Below, piece after piece: positions 1 through 8,078 of a stretch of 8,078 nt of DNA; the first letter of the stretch is position 1, and every line of letters begins with the position of its first letter. The stretch comes from a virus (Duplodnaviria; Heunggongvirae; Uroviricota; Caudoviricetes): the IMG/VR virus record IMGVR_UViG_2563366974_000015; one strand, 5' to 3'. Below the pieces are notes generated by a model. The model worked only from the letters and a program-made list of their open reading frames with translations, was not told where the DNA came from and searched no databases. The translations under genes and the position numbers were made by a program.

Positions 1-2301
1 GATAAGGTGTGGACCTATAACCGCAGTAATGTGGTGATGCCGGATGATGGCGCGCCGTTCCGCTACAGCTTCAGCGCCCTGAAGGACCGCCATAATGCCG
101 TTGAGGTGAACTGGATTGACCCGAACAACGGCTGGGAGACGGCGACAGAGCTTGTTGAAGATACGCAGGCCATTGCCCGTTACGGTCGTAATGTCACGAA
201 GATGGATGCCTTTGGTTGTACCAGTCGGGGGCAGGCACACCGAGCCGGGCTGTGGCTGATTAAAACGGAACTGCTGGAAACGCAGACCGTGGATTTCAGC
301 GTGGGCGCAGAAGGGCTTCGCCATGTGCCGGGCGATGTTATTGAAATCTGCGATGATGACTATGCCGGTATCAGCATCGGTGGTCGCGTGCTGGCGGTGA
401 ACAGCCAGACCCGGACGCTGACGCTCGACCGTGAAATCACGCTGCCATCCTCCGGCACCACGCTGATAAGCCTGGTTGACGGTGAGGGTAATCCGGTCAG
501 CGTGGAGGTCCAGTCCGTCACCGACGGCGTGAAGGTGAAAGTGAGCCGTGTTCCTGACGGCGTTGCTGAATACAGCGTGTGGGGGCTGAAGCTGCCGACG
601 CTGCGCCAGCGCCTGTTCCGCTGCGTGAGTATCCGTGAGAACGACGACGGCACGTATGCCATCACTGCCGTGCAGCATGTACCGGAGAAAGAGGCCATCG
701 TGGATAACGGGGCGCACTTTGACGGCGACCAGAGCGGCACGGTGAATGGTGTCACGCCGCCAGCGGTGCAGCACCTGACCGCCGAAGTCACCGCAGACAG
801 CGGGGAATATCAGGTGCTGGCGCGATGGGACACGCCGAAAGTGGTGAAGGGCGTGAGCTTCCTGCTTCGCCTTACCGTGGCAGCGGACGACGGCAGTGAG
901 CGGCTGGTCAGCATGGCCCGGACGACGGAAACCACATACCGCTTCAGGCAACTGGCGCTGGGGCGTTACACGCTGACGGTCCGGGCGGTAAATGCGTGGG
1001 GGCTGCAGGGCGATCCGGCATCGGTATCGTTCCGGATTGCGGCACCGGCAGCGCCGTCTCGTATTGAACTGATACCAGGGTATTTTCAGATAACCGCGGT
1101 CCCACATCTTGCGGTTTATGACCCGACGGTGCAGTTTGAGTTCTGGTTCTCGGAAAAACGGATTACGGATATCAGGCAGGTTGAAACCAGAGCCCGCTAT
1201 CTTGGCACGGCGCTGTACTGGATAGCCGCCAGTATCAATATCAAGCCGGGTCATGATTATTACTTTTACGTTCGCAGCGTGAACACCGTTGGCAAATCGG
1301 CATTCGTGGAGGCTGTTGGTCGGGCGAGCGATGATGCGGAAGGTTACCTGGATTTTTTCAAAGGCCAGATAACCGAATCCCATCTTGGCAAGGAGCTGCT
1401 GGAAAAAGTCGAGCTGACGGAGGATAACGCCAGCAAACTGGAGGAGTTTTCGAAAGAGTGGAAGGACGCCAGTGATAAGTGGAATGCCATGTGGGGCGTC
1501 AAAATTGAACAGACCAAAGACGGCAAACATTATGTCGCGGGTATTGGCCTCAGCATGGAGGACACGGAGGAAGGCAAACTGAGCCAGTTCCTGGTTGCCG
1601 CTAACCGTATCGCGTTTATTGATCCGTCTAATGGCAACACAAGACCAATGTTTGTTGGTCAGGGCGATCAGATATTCATGAACGACGTGTTCCTGAAACG
1701 CCTGACGGCTCCGACCATTACCAGCGGCGGTAATCCTCCGGCATTTTCCCTGACACCGGATGGGCGGCTGACGGCGAAAAATGCCGATATCAGCGGTAAC
1801 GTGAATGCGAACTCCGGGACGCTCAACAACGTCACGATTAACGAGAACTGTCGGGTTCTGGGAAAACTGTCCGCGAACCAGATTGAAGGCGATCTCGTTA
1901 AAACAGTGGGCAAAGCTTTCCCCCGGGACTCCCGTGCACCGGAACGGTGGCCATCAGGGACCATTACCGTCAGGGTTTATGACGATCAGCCGTTTGACCG
2001 GCAGATTGTTATTCCTGCAGTGGCATTCAGCGGCGCTAAACATGAGAGAGAGCATACTGATATTTACTCCTCATGCCGTCTGATAGTGCGGAAAAACGGT
2101 GCTGAAATTTATAACCGTACCGCGCTGGATAATACGCTGATTTACAGTGGCGTTATTGATATGCCTGCCGGTCACGGTCACATGACGCTGGAGTTTTCGG
2201 TGTCAGCATGGCTGGTAAATGACTGGTATCCCACAGCAAGTATCAGCGATTTGCTGGTTGTGGTGATGAAGAAAGCCACCGCAGGCATCAGTATCAGCTG
2301 A
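1..2301 (+). CDS. J: Host specificity protein J (tail tip / central fibre), C-terminal ~767 codons; 5' end lies upstream of the window
   Basis: Frame 1 is open from nt 1 (the ORF track starts at an internal GTG at 7) to TGA 2299-2301. The translation has a fibronectin-III-like stretch ([23 protein letters not shown]) and a lambda-J-like C-terminus ([32 protein letters not shown]). It sits immediately upstream of lom and stf as in lambda. Recognised from memory, no search run. Confidence 0.88.
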
Positions 2302-2320
2302 ATTTTATAACCCATATACG

Positions 2321-2347
2321 GGCGCCAGAAATGGCGCCTTTTTTATT
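2321..2347 (+). terminator. Rho-independent terminator downstream of J
   Basis: Perfect inverted repeat GGCGCC (2321-2326) / GGCGCC (2333-2338) with a 6-nt loop AGAAAT, followed by the T-run TTTTTTTATT (2339-2347). Confidence 0.6.
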
Positions 2348-2368
2348 GCAGAAAAGCGAGAGGTAATT

Positions 2369-2968
2369 ATGCGTAAAGTTTGTGCAGCCATTTTGTCCGC
2401 AGCCATTTGTCTGGCCGTATCCGGTGCGCCTGCATGGGCGTCTGAACATCAGTCCACGCTGAGCGCGGGGTATCTTCATGCCTCGACGAACGTCCCCGGC
2501 AGTGATGATCTGAACGGGATTAACGTGAAATACCGTTATGAGTTTACGGACACACTGGGGCTGGTGACGTCATTCAGCTATGCAGGAGACAAGAATCGCC
2601 AGCTGACCCGTTACAGCGATACCCGCTGGCATGAAGATTCCGTTCGTAACCGCTGGTTCAGCGTAATGGCGGGGCCGTCTGTGCGCGTGAATGAATGGTT
2701 CAGCGCGTATGCGATGGCGGGTGTAGCTTACAGCCGTGTGTCGACTTTCTCCGGGGATTATCTTCGCGTAACTGACAACAAGGGGAAAAAGCACGATGTG
2801 CTGACCGGAAGTGATGACGGTCGCCACAGCAACACGTCTCTGGCGTGGGGGGCTGGCGTGCAGTTTAACCCGACCGAATCCGTGGCCATTGATATTGCTT
2901 ATGAAGGCTCCGGCAGTGGCGACTGGCGCACTGACGGTTTCATCGTGGGTGTCGGTTATAAGTTCTGA
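2369..2968 (+). CDS. lom: Lom / Ail-family outer-membrane beta-barrel protein (prophage moron)
   Basis: 199-aa ORF with a signal-peptide-like N-terminus (MRKVCAAILSAAICLAVSGAPAWA). Shine-Dalgarno GAGAGG at 2358-2363, 5 nt before the ATG. The C-terminus VAIDIAYEGSGSGDWRTDGFIVGVGYKF matches the conserved end of lambda Lom as I recall it, and the gene is in the lambda position between J and stf. Confidence 0.88.
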   Translation: MRKVCAAILSAAICLAVSGAPAWASEHQSTLSAGYLHASTNVPGSDDLNGINVKYRYEFTDTLGLVTSFSYAGDKNRQLTRYSDTRWHEDSVRNRWFSVMAGPSVRVNEWFSAYAMAGVAYSRVSTFSGDYLRVTDNKGKKHDVLTGSDDGRHSNTSLAWGAGVQFNPTESVAIDIAYEGSGSGDWRTDGFIVGVGYKF

Positions 2969-2994
2969 TTAGCCAGGTAACACAGTGTTATGAC

Positions 2995-3022
2995 AGCCCG
3001 CCGGTTCAGGCGGGCTTTTTTG
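2995..3022 (+). terminator. Rho-independent terminator downstream of lom
   Basis: 8-bp perfect stem AGCCCGCC (2995-3002) / GGCGGGCT (3009-3016), 6-nt loop GGTTCA, followed by a T6 run ending at 3021. Confidence 0.6.
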
Positions 3023-3032
3023 TGGAGTGGAT

Positions 3033-4619
3033 ATGGCAGCAGTAAAAATCTCAGGTGTGCTGAAAGATGGTGCGGGAAAACCAATACAGAACTGCACTAT
3101 TCAACTGAAGGCAAAGCGTAACAGCACCACGGTACTGGTGAACACGGTGGCCTCTGAAAATCCGGATGAAGCCGGGCGTTACAGCATGGATGTTGAGTAT
3201 GGTCAGTACAGCGTCACCCTGCTGGTTGAAGGTTTTCCGCCTTCACATGCCGGGACCATTACCGTCTATGAAGGTTCCAGACCAGGTACGCTGAATGATT
3301 TTCTCGGTGCCATGACGGAAGATGATGTCATGCCGGAGGCATTGCGTCGTTTTGAGGCAATGGTGGAAGAAGCGGCACGCAACGCCGAAGCCGCCTCTCA
3401 GAGCGCAGCAGCGGCAAAGAAATCCGAAACTGCAGCGGCATCATCGAAGAACGCGGCGAAAACCTCAGAAACAAATGCAGCTAACAGCGCACAGGCGGCA
3501 GCGTCCTCGCAGACTGCATCGGCAAACTCCGCGACAGCAGCCAAAAAATCAGAAACCAACGCGAAAAATAGCGAGACAGCCGCAAAGACGAGCGAAACCA
3601 ACGCAAAGTCCAGCCAGACGGCAGCGAAAACCAGCGAAACGAATGCCAAAGCCAGTGAAACTGCGGCAAAAAACAGCCAGGTTGCAGCAGCCCAAAGCGA
3701 GAGCGCGGCAGCCGGTTCTGTGACTTTAGCAGCTGGATCAGCAACTGCTGCGGCTAACAGCCAGAAAGCTGCGAAGACGAGTGAAACTAACGCAAAGTCC
3801 AGCCAGACGGCAGCGAAGACCAGCGAAACGAATGCCAAAGCCAGCGAAACTGCGGCGAAAAACAGTCAGGATGCAGCAGCCCAAAGCGAGAGTGCTGCAG
3901 CCGGTTCTGCAAGCGCGGCGGCTGCTTCTGCCACTGCATCAGCCAACAGTCAAAAAGCAGCAAAAACCAGTGAAACCAACGCAAAGGTGAGCGAAACAGC
4001 GGCTGCGAACTCAGCGAAAGCATCGGCAGCAAGCCAGACGGCAGCTAAAGCAAGCGAAGATGCAGCCAGAGAGTACGCAAGCCAGGCTGCGGAGCCGTAT
4101 AAATATGTCTTACAGCCGCTGCCTGATGTGTGGATACCATTTAACGATTCACTGGATATGATTACGGGCTTTTTGCCATCATATAAAAAGATTGTTATTG
4201 GTGACGACGAAATAACGATGCCTGGCGACAAGATTGTTAAGTTTAAACGTGCATCGAAAGCAACCTATATTAACAAATCTGGTGTGCTGACAGAGGCTGC
4301 CATTGATGAGCCACGATTTGAACGTGATGGCCTGCTTATTGAGGGGCAAAGAACTAATCTTCTGCTTAATTCAACAAATCCATCTAAATGGAATAAGTCA
4401 GGCAATCTGGAACTCACAGAAATATCCACGGATTCTTTTAATTTTACTTATGGCAGATTTACTGTACAAGATTCGCTTATTGGTACGAGAAAAGCGATTA
4501 ACATCGTCAGGCTGTCTTCGAGTACAGGGGGGGATGTTACTTGTGATGAAGAAAAGGAGGTCACTATATGCTGTGGAATAAAAAGTGAAGAAGATAATAG
4601 GGGCGGTTGTATTTTATAA
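3033..4619 (+). CDS. stf: Side tail fibre protein Stf: lambda-like N-terminal attachment domain plus fibre repeats; C-terminal part appears truncated or disrupted
   Basis: ATG 3033 is preceded by GGAG at 3024-3027; the ORF track begins at an in-frame GTG at 3027. The N-terminus MAAVKISGVLKDGAGKPIQNCTIQLKAKRNSTTVLVNTVASENPDEAGRYSMDVEYGQYSV closely matches lambda Stf as remembered. The central region is Ala/Ser/Thr-rich with SETNAK-type repeats. The ORF ends at TAA 4617-4619, but the same frame reopens after a second stop (TAG 4632-4634). Confidence 0.8.
   Translation: MAAVKISGVLKDGAGKPIQNCTIQLKAKRNSTTVLVNTVASENPDEAGRYSMDVEYGQYSVTLLVEGFPPSHAGTITVYEGSRPGTLNDFLGAMTEDDVMPEALRRFEAMVEEAARNAEAASQSAAAAKKSETAAASSKNAAKTSETNAANSAQAAASSQTASANSATAAKKSETNAKNSETAAKTSETNAKSSQTAAKTSETNAKASETAAKNSQVAAAQSESAAAGSVTLAAGSATAAANSQKAAKTSETNAKSSQTAAKTSETNAKASETAAKNSQDAAAQSESAAAGSASAAAASATASANSQKAAKTSETNAKVSETAAANSAKASAASQTAAKASEDAAREYASQAAEPYKYVLQPLPDVWIPFNDSLDMITGFLPSYKKIVIGDDEITMPGDKIVKFKRASKATYINKSGVLTEAAIDEPRFERDGLLIEGQRTNLLLNSTNPSKWNKSGNLELTEISTDSFNFTYGRFTVQDSLIGTRKAINIVRLSSSTGGDVTCDEEKEVTICCGIKSEEDNRGGCIL
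3582..3909 (+). repeat. In-frame tandem direct repeat inside stf (two 139-bp copies, 189-bp period)
   Basis: Copy 1 (3582-3720) and copy 2 (3771-3909) align base for base with about ten mismatches. Both encode AAKTSETNAKSSQTAAKTSETNAKASETAAKNSQ.AAAQSESAAAGS. Shorter SETNAK-type units recur from about 3400 to 4070. Confidence 0.85.
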
Positions 4620-4805
4620 GACCATGATGGTTAGGAGGTCAGGTTTTCAGTAGGTACTGCACGCATTAACTCAACAATTGTAATTGTTAGCAATAGAAGT
4701 GATGCAGGCCGTGTTATAGCAAAGTCTGTTAAAGATGATGTAACTGGCTGGATATTTTTTGAGGCTACAATAAATGCACATAAAACAGAAAACACGGTTG
4801 GTGGG

Positions 4806-5411
4806 ATGGTTCAGTACGCTCCTGTAAAAGGTTCAGGTACAGCATCTGGAGACTATCTGGATATCGCAACTCCACAAGTGGAAGGTGGATCAAGTGCTTC
4901 GTCATTTATTGTAACTGATATAACTGCAAGCACTCGCGCAAGCGATATGGTGACAGTCCCAATCAAGAATAACCTTTATAATCTTCCTTTTACGGTTCTT
5001 TGTGAGGTACATAAGAACTGGTATAAAACGCCAAATGCAGCACCGCGTGTTTTTGATACCGGCGGTCATCAAACCGGAGCGGCTATTATTCTTGGCTTCG
5101 GTCGTTCAACAGATTACGACGGATTTCCTTATTGTGATATAGGTTTGGCTAACAGACGGGTAAACGAAAACGCATCGCTTGAAAAAATGGTTATGGGGAT
5201 GCGTGTAAAGTCAGATCAGTCTACGTGCTCAGTAAGTAACGGGCGTATATCCAGCGAAAAGAAAGCCACATGGTCCTATATTCAGAACTCCGCAATTATC
5301 CGTATTGGAGGCCAGACTACAGCCGGGTTGCGTCATTTATTTGGTCATGTCAGGAATTTCAGAATATGGCACAAGGCATTGACTGATGCTCAGATGGGGG
5401 AGTCAATCTAA
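4806..5411 (+). CDS. LamG/concanavalin-A-like domain protein; probably the detached C-terminal receptor-binding part of the tail fibre
   Basis: 201-aa ORF from ATG 4806, but the same frame is stop-free back to 4635 with no canonical start codon in that stretch, and it is the stf frame. The C-terminal signature IRIGGQTTAGLRHLFGHVRNFRIWHKALTDAQM is typical of LamG-like jelly-roll lectin domains. The ribosome-binding site at 4806 is weak (GGTTGGTGGG directly abutting the ATG). Low-GC region. Confidence 0.5.
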   Translation: MVQYAPVKGSGTASGDYLDIATPQVEGGSSASSFIVTDITASTRASDMVTVPIKNNLYNLPFTVLCEVHKNWYKTPNAAPRVFDTGGHQTGAAIILGFGRSTDYDGFPYCDIGLANRRVNENASLEKMVMGMRVKSDQSTCSVSNGRISSEKKATWSYIQNSAIIRIGGQTTAGLRHLFGHVRNFRIWHKALTDAQMGESI

Positions 5412-5692
5412 TGAAAGATTTAACACTCAAATTTGCAGACAGGGCCGACTTTTCGGCCTTTATGGATAGCATTGGCTATTATGATGACGAGTCGATGCAG
5501 GATGATATTCTTATTGACGTGATAGGTAACGTGTACAAAGAAACCGGAGAACTGACTGAAGATGGCGAACCGGTATGTGTTAAGGAAGATGGATATTTTG
5601 TAAACGTGCGCATCATTAATGATGCAAAAAAATCGTTAATATTCGATGAATACGCGGTTGTAGTTGAACATCAACTTCGTGGCTGGATGTGA
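5411..5692 (+). CDS. Hypothetical small acidic protein (93 aa); possible tip-specific assembly factor
   Basis: The start overlaps the upstream stop by one base (TAATG at 5409-5413), suggesting translational coupling. Acidic composition (many D/E). No family recognised. Confidence 0.55.
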   Translation: MKDLTLKFADRADFSAFMDSIGYYDDESMQDDILIDVIGNVYKETGELTEDGEPVCVKEDGYFVNVRIINDAKKSLIFDEYAVVVEHQLRGWM

Positions 5693-5701
5693 GGGAGACA
5701 A

Positions 5702-6406
5702 ATGGCTACATCGACAGTAATTCCAGGAGACATCACCACGTTAAAGGGAGATGTCAGTAAAGCCAAGGAAGATATTTCCTCAATTAACGGAAAAGTATCA
5801 ACGCTTCAGGCTGATATGACCAGTGCAAAGCAGGATATCAGCACCAGATACACAAAAACTGAAGTTGATAATAAGCTGAAAAACAAACTGGAAGTGAACG
5901 CTCTGGAAAGCGGTCGTTATGGTGGAGATTTTTACCCGTTGACTGGCCGTGAAGCGTTTTATTTGTGGGGATTGGGCACGACTACAGCGGCGGCAAACCT
6001 TTATCTTAATCCTGACCCCGCAATTTCGTCTGTGCTGCGGTCAACATCGTCTATCCGCTATAAACATTCAGTAGAGACAATAGATTCAGAGCACGCCGAT
6101 CTCATTTTCAGGATGCGCCCTGTGTGGTACAGGTCACAATGCGAAAATGACAGGCGTGACTGGGGATTCTACGGATTGATTGCCGAGGAAGTAGGAGAAA
6201 TTGCCCCTCAGTTTGTACACTGGCGACCAGCTAACGAAGATGATGCACCGGAAGCTATTTCCAGCAATGGCCTTGTTGCCGAAGGTGTAATGTACGAACG
6301 TCTGGTTGTTCCACTGATTCACCATATCCAGAAGCTGACTGAAAGAGTTGATGAACTTGAGTCAGAATTAAAGTTGTTATCCGTTTCCCGAAGCGATATC
6401 GGATAA
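5702..6406 (+). CDS. Short tail-fibre-like protein: N-terminal coiled-coil segment plus C-terminal intramolecular chaperone (peptidase S74-like) domain
   Basis: Shine-Dalgarno GAGGGAG at 5691-5697 precedes ATG 5702. Candidate catalytic Ser-x-x-Arg-x-Lys motif SSIRYK (residues 116-121, nt 6047-6064), followed by WGFYGLIAEEVGEIAPQFVHW and GLVAEGVMYERLVVPLIHHIQKLTERVDELESEL, which match the conserved blocks of self-cleaving C-terminal chaperone domains of phage fibres and spikes (endosialidase / T5 L-shaped fibre type). The N-terminal region has heptad-like spacing. Confidence 0.72.
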   Translation: MATSTVIPGDITTLKGDVSKAKEDISSINGKVSTLQADMTSAKQDISTRYTKTEVDNKLKNKLEVNALESGRYGGDFYPLTGREAFYLWGLGTTTAAANLYLNPDPAISSVLRSTSSIRYKHSVETIDSEHADLIFRMRPVWYRSQCENDRRDWGFYGLIAEEVGEIAPQFVHWRPANEDDAPEAISSNGLVAEGVMYERLVVPLIHHIQKLTERVDELESELKLLSVSRSDIG

Positions 6407-6416
6407 AGGAGGAGTA

Positions 6417-6710
6417 ATGGATATAACACCTTTCCTTCATGCGCTTTGTGCTGTGGCTGCGCAGCTACTGATTGGTCTTTTTACCGGGAACTGGGCTTAC
6501 GGGGCGATAGCTGGTTGTACGTTCTTCATTGCGCGTGAACACACCCAGGCAGAATATCGCTGGATTGAAATGTTCGGGCATGGCAAGCGAATGAATATGC
6601 CGTGGTGGGGCGGTTTTGATCCGCGCGCGTGGGATGTGGCAAGCCTGATGGATTTTGCTGTGCCGGTGGTGGCGTGTCTGCTGGTCTGGCTGTTGGTTAA
6701 TCGTGGGTGA
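6417..6710 (+). CDS. Hypothetical small inner-membrane protein (97 aa, 2-3 predicted transmembrane segments)
   Basis: Strong Shine-Dalgarno AGGAGGAG at 6407-6414 before ATG 6417. Hydrophobic stretches FLHALCAVAAQLLIGLFTGNWAYGAIAGCTFFIA and LMDFAVPVVACLLVWLLV flank a charged loop. GC content is higher than in the upstream cassette. Confidence 0.55.
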   Translation: MDITPFLHALCAVAAQLLIGLFTGNWAYGAIAGCTFFIAREHTQAEYRWIEMFGHGKRMNMPWWGGFDPRAWDVASLMDFAVPVVACLLVWLLVNRG

Positions 6711-6720
6711 AAAAAGGTGA

Positions 6721-6840
6721 GCTGTATATGCAACGGAGGAAGAAACCTCGTTGCTGGAAGCCTGGAAGAAGTATCGGGTGTTGCTGAACCGTGTTGATAC
6801 GTCAACTGCACAGGATATTGAATGGCCAGCACTGCCGTAG
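6721..6840 (+). pseudogene. tfa: 3' remnant of the tail fibre assembly gene tfa (last ~39 codons, no start codon)
   Basis: The frame opens just after TGA 6718-6720 and reads [39 protein letters not shown], ending at TAG 6838-6840. This matches the conserved C-terminal end of lambda-type Tfa proteins as I recall it. No upstream coding sequence or start codon is present. Confidence 0.7.
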
Positions 6841-6937
6841 GGTAAAACATATAAATTCTATAATTAGATGTATCTTTCCATTTACGGCAAGGAAGGGGGC
6901 TTGGAAGACGTAAAGCATCTCACACCGAGATTATTTT

Positions 6938-7528
6938 TTATATGTCAGGTGTCTGAAGTTTTGCTTTGGCTCTTAAAATGGTTTGCCGCGAGGTTTTGAA
7001 TTCCCGGGCAATGGCACTTATACTTACACCTGACTTAATTCGTTCGAATACCACCTGTTTCTGTTCTTCATTTAACACAGGTGGTCGACCAAAACGTTTC
7101 CCTGCGCCGCTGGCTCTTACTATCCCGGAATGAGTGCGTTCAAGTAAAAGGTCTCGTTCAAATTCAGCGACTGCTGAAATTACGTGCATCATCATTTTTC
7201 CTGTTGGACTGGTCAGGTCAATGCCCCCCAATGCTAAGCAATGCACTCTGATACCTGTTTCGGTCAGTTGTTCCACTGTTTTCCTGATATCCATTGCATT
7301 ACAACCAAGGCGATCCAGTTTTGTCACAATCAATTGATCACCACATTTCAGGCGAGCAAGCAACCGGTTAAAACCAGGACGCTCACTGGTTGCTGCTGAG
7401 CCGCTAATGTGTTCTTCGATTATTTGCTGAGGTTTGATTTTAAAACCTGCACTTTCGATTTCCCGGCGTTGATTTTCGGTGGTCTGATCCAGCGTTGATA
7501 TCCGACAGTAAGCAAAAATTCGAGACAT
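6938..7528 (-). CDS. pin: Serine recombinase of the DNA-invertase/resolvase family (Pin-type, as found beside tail-fibre genes in Rac/Qin prophages)
   Basis: 196-aa ORF with N-terminal catalytic-serine motif [13 protein letters not shown], the KLDRLG motif and a C-terminal helix-turn-helix ([19 protein letters not shown]). Length and sequence match my recollection of PinR/PinQ. It is convergent with the fibre genes and adjacent to the tfa remnant. Confidence 0.88.
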
Positions 7529-7844
7529 AGTGAGACTCTATACGAAATTGGTGTTCATATCATAATGCATCTCAGAAAATAATTTTGATTATTTTTGTGC
7601 ATATTTGTATGTACACGTTCGAAAATAAACGAATGCGTATGCAACCCCGTAACTTTGGTGAGACCCAAAATCGATTTTGTGAAAAATGGCTTTAACTCGG
7701 TTTGTTTTTCGAGTTCCGGGCGGACTCAAGGAAGAAGAATAGTGTTGCGTGTTATTTTAACCAGATTTCAAGTTGTTTGGTCGTGGAAAAGTGGAGCAAA
7801 ATGTTGTTAAAGTGGAAAAATGATAAAAAAGTAAGTTTATTATA

Positions 7845-8078
7845 TTACATTTTACCATTTAAATTTTGGTTGTCTTTAAGAACTGATATCGCTGTTTGTA
7901 ATAATTCTTTGTTATCCAGCCATGACTTTTTCTTTATGTTTCCTTCAATGTAATCAAGCAATGTTCTGGTATTGATAGGTCTTCCCTGTTTTGCTACTTC
8001 CACGACAGCATCTCCCAGGATAATTCTGACTTCAGGAAGCTGCGCAGGGAACCACTTTAGGGTGTCTTTTGATTTCAT
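7845..8078 (-). CDS. ynaE: YnaE/YdfK-family prophage protein (function unknown; cold-shock-associated in E. coli K-12)
   Basis: 77-aa ORF MKSKDTLKWFPAQLPEVRIILGDAVVEVAKQGRPINTRTLLDYIEGNIKKKSWLDNKELLQTAISVLKDNQNLNGKM, essentially the YnaE/YdfK sequence as remembered. It lies next to pin as in Rac and Qin. The start codon is at the window edge, so upstream signals cannot be seen. Confidence 0.75.
   Translation of the reverse strand: MKSKDTLKWFPAQLPEVRIILGDAVVEVAKQGRPINTRTLLDYIEGNIKKKSWLDNKELLQTAISVLKDNQNLNGKM

Follow-up and report, generated by a model that had tools for sequence, protein, structure and literature searches.

A T5-like receptor-binding module at the distal end of a lambdoid side tail fibre in an Escherichia coli prophage

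In the Tequintavirus IrisVonRoten (Bas32), the distal fibre protein gp24 was modelled attached to the proximal fibre gp22, the C-terminus of which forms a protruding galectin-like domain proposed to be an extra receptor-binding domain (Humolli et al. 2025, PMC11990801). For the branched L-shaped fibres of phages DT57C and DT571/2, LtfB was inferred to ride on LtfA by means of a short conserved N-terminus (Golomidova et al. 2016, PMC4728585), and fibres of the LtfA/LtfB type were reported to target the O-antigen (PMC4728585; Ayala et al. 2023, PMC10713586). The head spike fibre of the gene transfer agent (GTA) RcGTA also acts as a receptor-binding protein, its receptor being an extracellular polysaccharide (PMC10218006). 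Here we analyse the tail fibre locus in the virus record IMGVR_UViG_2563366974_000015 (Caudoviricetes), a stretch of 8078 nucleotides which we call the window and whose positions are counted from its first letter. We interpret positions 4113-6406 as a module for receptor binding that makes up the distal part of a lateral (side) tail fibre and is carried on the anchor and shaft of a lambdoid Stf protein, and an anomalous patch inside this module as most likely a consensus chimera. The probability of this reading is roughly 80 %. The features on which it is based are the following:

3033..4112, plus strand: N-terminal tail anchor (phage_tail_N, Pfam PF08400, 224 bits) and Ala/Ser/Thr/Lys-rich shaft of Stf, with repeats and a GC content of 54.5 %.
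4113..5411, plus strand: acquired C-terminal module of Stf, made of the conserved junction QPLPDVWIPFNDSL... at its start and two beta-sandwich domains; broken up in the window.
~4335-4940: beta-sandwich domain 1, GTA head-spike-fibre type, variable across alleles.
~4944-5408: beta-sandwich domain 2, LamG-like, conserved.
4454..4805, plus strand: anomalous patch of 352 nt, 71 % identical to E. coli S88, with stop codons TAA at 4617-4619 and TAG at 4632-4634.
5411..5692, plus strand: 93-aa acidic protein, PHROG 1361, homologue of IrisVonRoten gp23.
5702..6406, plus strand: 234-aa protein, read here as a minimal distal fibre, with the conserved adaptor MATSTVIPGDITTLKG at its N-terminus, a coiled coil, a short tip and a C-terminal S74 chaperone.
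From ~6047, plus strand: Peptidase_S74 intramolecular chaperone with a predicted Ser116/Lys121 dyad.

By mechanism and descent, the module is the one found in T5-like phages of the IrisVonRoten type and in many small siphoviruses, which combines a proximal fibre tipped by a lectin-like domain, a small protein and a distal fibre that bears an adaptor. The nearest complete genomes (E. coli S88, APEC O1 and relatives) encode an intact Stf of 792 aa, followed by the same genes for 93-, 234- and 97-aa proteins, the tfa remnant and the recombinase. The S88 Stf is 53.6 % identical to IrisVonRoten gp22 over 742 aa. The acquired C-terminal module aligns with gp22 without a break in coverage, beginning at the junction QPLPDVWIPFNDSL and reaching the final residue, and the two Stf fragments of the window are 62 % and 71 % identical to gp22. 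The 93-aa protein shares 38 % identity with gp23, which has the same position and overlap, and the 234-aa protein is 60 % identical to gp35 of the Drexlerviridae phage KarlJaspers. The order of the three genes recurs in IrisVonRoten (gp21-gp24), in KarlJaspers (gp37-35), in a phage-like plasmid and in the T5-like Salmonella phage FGS017, where they stand right behind the collar gene for attachment of the L-shaped fibre. The full cassette was recovered from 145 of the 5426 complete E. coli genomes and parts of it from more than 1500; it is also present in many lambdoid phages, including several isolated ones.

The base composition sets the module apart from its surroundings. The GC content is 55.4 % at positions 1-4112 (56.3 % in the J gene), 43.0 % at 4113-6410 and 54.1 % in the following gene orf97 (6417-6710), while the GC content at third codon positions goes from 0.50-0.65 outside the cassette to 0.34-0.43 within it. 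Change points were placed at ~4100-4140 and ~6380-6440, and not one of 2000 shuffles contained any 2311-nt window equally low in GC. The original prediction had noticed the drop from hand counts of 60-nt blocks, which turned out to be exact (31.7 % at 4141-4200 and 43.3 % at 5701-5760). Its statement that GC rises again downstream applies to orf97 but not to the rest, as 6411-8078 has a GC content of only 43.2 % and the high values are not kept past 6710.

The same position emerged from a comparison of the locus across phages; the original prediction had proposed a comparison across related prophages as a way of mapping the exchange boundaries. Megablast matches in non-lambdoid phages all start at 4113 or 1-2 bases off, exactly where the GC content drops, and stop at ~5386 or, in one phage, at 5761. 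Because of this common start, the left exchange boundary can be mapped to ~4113; it is common to T5-like Salmonella phages, Seuratvirus and others. The right exchange boundary is the end of the third gene, encoding the 234-aa protein. A boundary held in common by several phage groups bears out the proposal that the receptor-binding module was acquired horizontally, and the module is indeed unlike the lambda/Rac stf-tfa pair, with no Caudo_TAP domain and with matches lying in T5-like phages, Seuratvirus and other phages.

The part of Stf upstream of the boundary, 3033-4112, is the resident lambdoid portion. Its shaft carries 21-nt periodic repeats and the repeat families D1-D3. Between 3525 and 4058 the 21-nt (7-aa) repeats of the type ..KTSETNAK.. 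are accompanied by an AT skew of ~0.5-0.6, and a tandem duplication of 189 nt (3548-3736 and 3737-3925) is 84 % identical between its copies. The repeats also yield long spurious antisense open reading frames (ORFs), for example one of 146 aa at 3398-3838 on the minus strand, and the equivalent antisense ORF has been annotated as a protein by the Prokaryotic Genome Annotation Pipeline (PGAP) in strain SJC33.

Downstream of the boundary, 4100-5411 had been taken as one product. In the window, however, the stf frame is split by the TAA at 4617-4619 and the TAG at 4632-4634 into ORFs 3033-4619 and 4806-5411. The NCBIfam model NF048003 (GTA head-spike-fibre) matched residues 435-636 of the intact orthologue with 58.6 bits against a cut-off of 36, and this is the region that holds both stops in the window. 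Laminin_G_3 (PF13385) was called on several homologues with 40-46 % identity. For the fold we modelled a related natural allele, P0081, which comprises 350 aa, is 81 % identical to the 201-aa C-terminal ORF of the window and was aligned with 22 homologues. The model has a mean pLDDT score of 78 and consists of two beta-sandwich domains connected by a low-confidence linker. On this model, the tip of Stf is predicted to have a ConA/LamG-like jelly-roll beta-sandwich fold, which vindicates, at the level of fold, the LamG-like tip suggested earlier. Peptidase_S74 gave no match to Stf in Pfam scans of the window proteins and of the S88 orthologue. When natural alleles were compared, domain 1 was highly variable, while domain 2 and the junction were conserved; because it differs so strongly between alleles, domain 1 is the likely glycan-binding specificity domain. 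A candidate docking segment at Stf residues 385-410, which differed between loci with and without the third gene, was lost once IrisVonRoten and KarlJaspers were added to the comparison.

The second gene encodes, as had been suggested, a translationally coupled small acidic protein: its isoelectric point is 4.17 and its ATG overlaps the stop codon of stf (TAATG). The family is small, as a search of 1.84 billion proteins gave 48 representatives at E <= 0.001, and its members always accompany a lectin-tipped fibre, whether the distal fibre gene is present or absent. Judged from position and coupling only, the protein most likely helps to assemble the lectin-tipped fibre or serves it as an adaptor. 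That it represents a new class of assembly factor specific to such fibres is a rather improbable further reading.

The third gene, encoding the 234-aa protein, had been described as a short protein with a self-cleaving chaperone domain, and the domain assignment holds. Pfam Peptidase_S74 (PF13884) matched residues 116-172 with 27.3 bits against a gathering cut-off of 22, and the region aligned with PDB 8hqz_d, a chain of an L-shaped tail fibre with solved structure (E = 5.5e-7). In this alignment S116-S-I-R119-Y-K121 stands in register with S-G-I-E-Y-K of 8hqz_d, giving the putative cleavage motif Ser-x2-Arg-x-Lys. By comparison with endosialidase and T5 pb1, we take Ser116 to be the nucleophile and assign the role of the lysine to Lys121, five residues on; autocleavage itself is a prediction. 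In PHROG, the protein matches the C-terminus of the 1385-aa phrog_3299, while its first 32 residues match the N-termini of PHROGs 4563 and 19752. The N-terminal motif M(A/V)T(S/K)TVIP.DI..LK is common to distal proteins of 225, 234, 346, 574 and 581 aa encoded at the same position of the locus. The N-terminus MATSTVIPGDITTLKG is 74 % identical over 27 aa to that of the 346-aa form and aligns with MVTKTVIPTDITKLKN of gp24 and of the 581-aa protein of FGS017, a match which is short and weak when taken alone. The third gene is absent from some loci that keep Stf and the 92-aa gene, among them those of CFT073 and of the isolated phages ev243 and PhiR49_2. In our reading the 234-aa protein forms a minimal distal branch and does not act as a free chaperone, because its N-terminus is shared with longer distal proteins, the third gene is missing from some loci and the arrangement fits those published for LtfB/LtfA and gp24/gp22.

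Two other views of the module were considered. The 234-aa protein might be a chaperone acting in trans on the folding of the Stf trimer, and not a structural distal fibre, which we regard as rather unlikely. It is true that only ~115 residues are left once S74 is removed, which is little for a receptor-binding fibre, that Stf itself has no S74 domain, and that KarlJaspers gp35 and PeterMerian homologues are annotated as 'putative lateral tail fiber chaperone'. The adaptor motif, however, is also found on bona fide distal fibres of 574-581 aa, and ev243, PhiR49_2 and other loci keep Stf and the 92-aa protein without the third gene, which is therefore not needed for Stf folding. Moreover, to our knowledge, the S74 domains in characterised cases act in cis on their own polypeptide. 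It is far less probable still that the cassette is an undescribed fibre-tip system, as the original prediction proposed. The 93-aa protein has no Pfam or NCBIfam name and PGAP labels two of the cassette genes 'hypothetical'; against this, all four genes already belong to PHROG families (full-length Stf to phrog_1419 'tail protein', the 93-aa protein to 1361, the 234-aa protein to 3299 and the 97-aa protein to 1443). The module is also homologous over its full length and syntenic to that modelled as gp22-gp23-gp24 in IrisVonRoten (PMC11990801), is related to the branched fibres of DT57C (PMC4728585), and occurs in many E. coli genomes and isolated phages.

We propose that the module was swapped horizontally between virulent siphophages and lambdoid prophages and was grafted here onto a lambdoid Stf. 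The first gene would provide the last ~430 residues of Stf, i.e. the junction and the two ConA-like beta-sandwiches; the coupled 93-aa acidic protein may serve as assembly factor or adaptor of the fibre end; and the 234-aa mini distal fibre would sit on the proximal fibre via the adaptor used by the long T5-like distal fibres. The S74 chaperone is expected to trimerise the 234-aa protein and then to cleave itself off at ~Thr115/Ser116. The resulting fibre would be branched and would bind a glycan, presumably O-antigen or capsule. Homology, fold, domain content, synteny and the exchange boundaries are what the analysis shows. The graft pushed out Tfa, the invertible segment and the C-terminus that Stf had originally, with a tfa stub and an orphan pin gene as the remains.

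Several observations weigh against this picture. The fold comes from the P0081 allele and not from the interrupted sequence of the window, and on the S88 orthologue Pfam Laminin_G_3 stayed below the threshold (14.1 vs 27.6 bits). The 93-aa protein had no match in Pfam, NCBIfam or PADLOC, and its structure prediction, built on a shallow alignment, reached a pLDDT of 40 and gave no usable fold. The attachment of the 234-aa protein to Stf is deduced from a shared N-terminus of ~27 residues and from models of a distant relative, and our search of the literature found no experiment on the lambdoid version. Finally, the chimeric nature of the patch, discussed below, was deduced indirectly, from the assembled sequence.

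The locus offers a boundary-mapped case in which near-identical receptor-binding DNA moves between virulent T5-like or T1-like phages and temperate lambdoid prophages of pathogenic E. coli (the lineage of S88 and APEC O1). This is of use for host-range prediction and when delivery particles based on lambda are engineered. Although widespread, neither the 93-aa protein nor the mini distal fibre has been characterised by experiment. What remains as novelty is the uncharacterised 93-aa protein and a small chance that the site-wise mosaic described in the following is real.

The interruption of stf falls into the patch at 4454-4805. Outside of 3632-4139, this patch and the tract 700-1290 in J, the window is essentially identical to S88, with two differences in 4806-8078 and none in 4140-4453. 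As exact proteins, both stf fragments occur in a single assembly, that of E. coli KTE5 (ELC04431.1 and ELC04432.1; one contig each among 15 billion proteins). In KTE5 the locus lies on the draft scaffold KB732234.1, adjoining prfC, and the prophage tail region contains four runs of N (905-1734, 2775-6089, 6959-6968 and 21027-21366 in a locus numbering in which the window starts at 6969). Three of these gaps are located shortly upstream of the window, and one of them stops immediately before it and splits J.

We searched for a donor of the patch, but neither phages nor any of the 5426 complete genomes of E. coli gave a match above 77 % identity. Exact-pattern scans of viral contigs, GTDB genomes and metagenomes gave no match either, and a protein search, limited by a 5-residue word filter, returned nothing beyond B-type fragments at 57 % identity, B being the second of the two natural alleles, A (S88) and B (WP8-S18), with which we aligned the patch by codons. 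Where A and B differ, the patch has the state of A at 67 sites, of B at 61 and of neither at 15; 25 more sites differ from both where A and B agree. The ~40 private changes fall about equally on all three codon positions, strike residues conserved in all nine aligned alleles (e.g. SCR and R.RFE) and create both stops. The tract 700-1290 in J looks similar, with 28 differences to S88 and the two alleles interleaved site by site (40 A, 24 B, 4 private) in an intact ORF; among complete E. coli genomes and in the database, identity to it does not exceed 96.3 %. In a runs test the A/B labels of the J tract formed 29 runs where 31.0 are expected, and those of the patch 61 where 64.9 are expected, so the labels are random per site. 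This excludes a recombinant of A and B with few crossovers. Random labels would be produced by a true third lineage as well, but the private branch in J (4) is six-fold shorter than the shorter of the other two branches (24) and no clock-like history fits; relatives of such a lineage would, moreover, be expected in so large a database.

The third divergent tract, 3632-4139, is of another kind: it is a clean, contiguous stf tract of the WP8-S18 type inside an S88-type gene, and the differences are almost all synonymous. The segment 3940-4160 is matched at 100 % by the WP8-S18 genome and by several more, and 314 records reach >=99 %. From its sequence this tract looks like ordinary recombination, or like a switch of the assembly path in the repeat-rich shaft.

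We consider it likely that the patch is an assembly chimera, in which reads of two related KTE5 prophages were mixed during gap closing or consensus steps. Our reasons are that the patch is unique to KTE5, that it mixes A and B site by site, that N-gaps adjoin the window, that many other draft assemblies break within stf (partial proteins of 461-532 aa, orphan contigs of 500-600 nt) and that genomes often carry several copies of a stf-type gene, up to four. The J tract probably has the same cause. A less probable explanation is that the patch is real and stf a pseudogene, a short tract of an unsampled, already decayed third allele having been copied into the S88-type gene. Phages can tolerate a broken stf, for example lambda PaPa (PMC11990801), and such genes occur in finished assemblies, as the stf of the complete genome of E. 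coli SJC33 (locus 2594-4972) is annotated as pseudogene pieces. The domain is also highly polymorphic, with many natural alleles, and another tract of the window, 3632-4139, looks like ordinary recombination. Such a history is, however, at odds with the lack of a donor in the genomes, phages and metagenomes searched, with private changes that are even over the codon positions, hit conserved residues and create two stops, with flanks so nearly identical to S88 that the patch cannot have decayed where it stands, with the same site-wise mixture in J, where four private sites imply a roughly six-fold violation of the clock, and with the scaffold gaps adjoining the window.

We give still less credit to the possibility that both patch and J tract are real and that the alleles of two co-resident prophages were mixed site by site in receptor-binding sequences; if true, phage adhesin genes would be subject to a hitherto unrecognised process, either templated diversification or conversion in very short patches. 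Hypermutation targeted at the receptor-binding domain, of the kind driven by diversity-generating retroelements, is very improbable. A sharply bounded divergent segment with identical flanks in a lectin-like receptor-binding domain would suit it, but the window contains no reverse transcriptase and no template repeat, and the four bases do not differ much in how often they are altered (A 25 %, C 44 %, G 22 %, T 32 %), so that a diversity-generating retroelement is ruled out. Furthermore, 61 of the 76 changes at sites where A and B differ take the state of the other natural allele, which is not expected of random mutagenesis. Caution is called for, since the one feature that sets the window apart from all other sequences most likely arose through faulty assembly, in a prophage region that is rich in repeats and lies on a draft scaffold with gaps.

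The ORF map and the domain scans identify the window as the tail end of a lambdoid prophage. The remaining features are:

7-2301: C-terminus of J (ORF map and domain scans).
2369-2968: lom (ORF map and domain scans).
From 3033, plus strand: stf, then three small ORFs.
6417..6710, plus strand: 97-aa predicted membrane protein, PHROG 1443 ('Ybl63'), 54 % GC, outside the low-GC cassette.
6730..6840, plus strand: tfa remnant, the C-terminal ~37 codons (111 nt), from the PGAP annotation of the identical S88 sequence.
6938..7528, minus strand: intact Pin-type serine invertase (Pfam Resolvase and HTH_7).
After the pin invertase: ydfK (ORF map and domain scans).

Between lom and stf, at 2995-3016, lies a strong terminator-like hairpin with 8 pairs, of which 7 are GC, and a T run behind it. 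It suggests that transcription of stf and the cassette may be separate from that of the late operon or may depend on read-through from it. Scans of the window with PADLOC and Rfam gave no result. The 97-aa protein has hydrophobic N- and C-terminal segments and no match in Pfam, NCBIfam or PADLOC. Among the loci examined, those of prophages, lambdoid phages and phage-plasmids have its gene behind the fibre genes, but the T5-like ones do not; the gene may be a moron or serve in exclusion. As for Caudo_TAP tail fibre assembly proteins, the downstream region holds only the 111-nt C-terminal tfa remnant. An invertible tail fibre switch of the Pin/Gin/Cin type was considered and rejected: the invertase is present, but a search for crossover sites that allowed up to 2 mismatches gave none in the window, nor did we see inverted repeats that were convincing. 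The pin gene is an orphan invertase left behind after the loss of the invertible fibre segment. Since the tfa stub and a pin without crossover sites remain, the ancestral end of Stf, Tfa and the invertible segment have been replaced, in agreement with the earlier suggestion that the cassette took the place of the usual stf C-terminus and tfa.

Compared with the systems described so far, the locus retains from the lambda/Rac Stf-Tfa pair with its Pin/Gin segment the N-terminal Stf anchor, the place after J and lom, the tfa stub and pin, whereas the receptor-binding end and chaperone are replaced and both Caudo_TAP and inversion sites are missing. With the RcGTA head spike fibre it has in common domain 1, which scores above the NF048003 cut-off; the location differs (head spike vs tail fibre), the sequences are distant, and binding by domain 1 is suggested by analogy. 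DT57C LtfA/LtfB resembles the module in having two fibre proteins, the second held through the first, and a distal S74 autocleaving chaperone. Both DT57C proteins end in S74, however, while the proximal fibre of the window ends in lectin-like domains without S74, and no small intervening protein is mentioned for DT57C (PMC4728585, PMC10713586). KarlJaspers (fibre gp37, gp36 and gp35; Maffei et al. 2021, PMC8594841) provides the closest match to the short third gene, of similar length, together with a 92-aa middle gene and a lectin-like fibre end; it differs in virion anchor and genome context, and the chaperone function of gp35 is an annotation only. IrisVonRoten gp22-gp24 shares the gene order, the overlapping starts, the lectin-like proximal end and a middle gene of ~92 aa, and its gp24 has, like the 234-aa protein, an N-terminal adaptor motif and a C-terminal intramolecular chaperone. 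In contrast to IrisVonRoten, where the N-terminus is bound by T5 LtfC, the anchor in the window is the lambdoid phage_tail_N; the distal protein has 234 aa and neither Gp12-like nor T5-like receptor-binding domains, a gene for the 97-aa membrane protein comes next, and stf is interrupted. What marks the locus is its phage_tail_N anchor of lambdoid type, a distal protein that is very short and the adjoining 97-aa membrane protein gene, none of which is rare.

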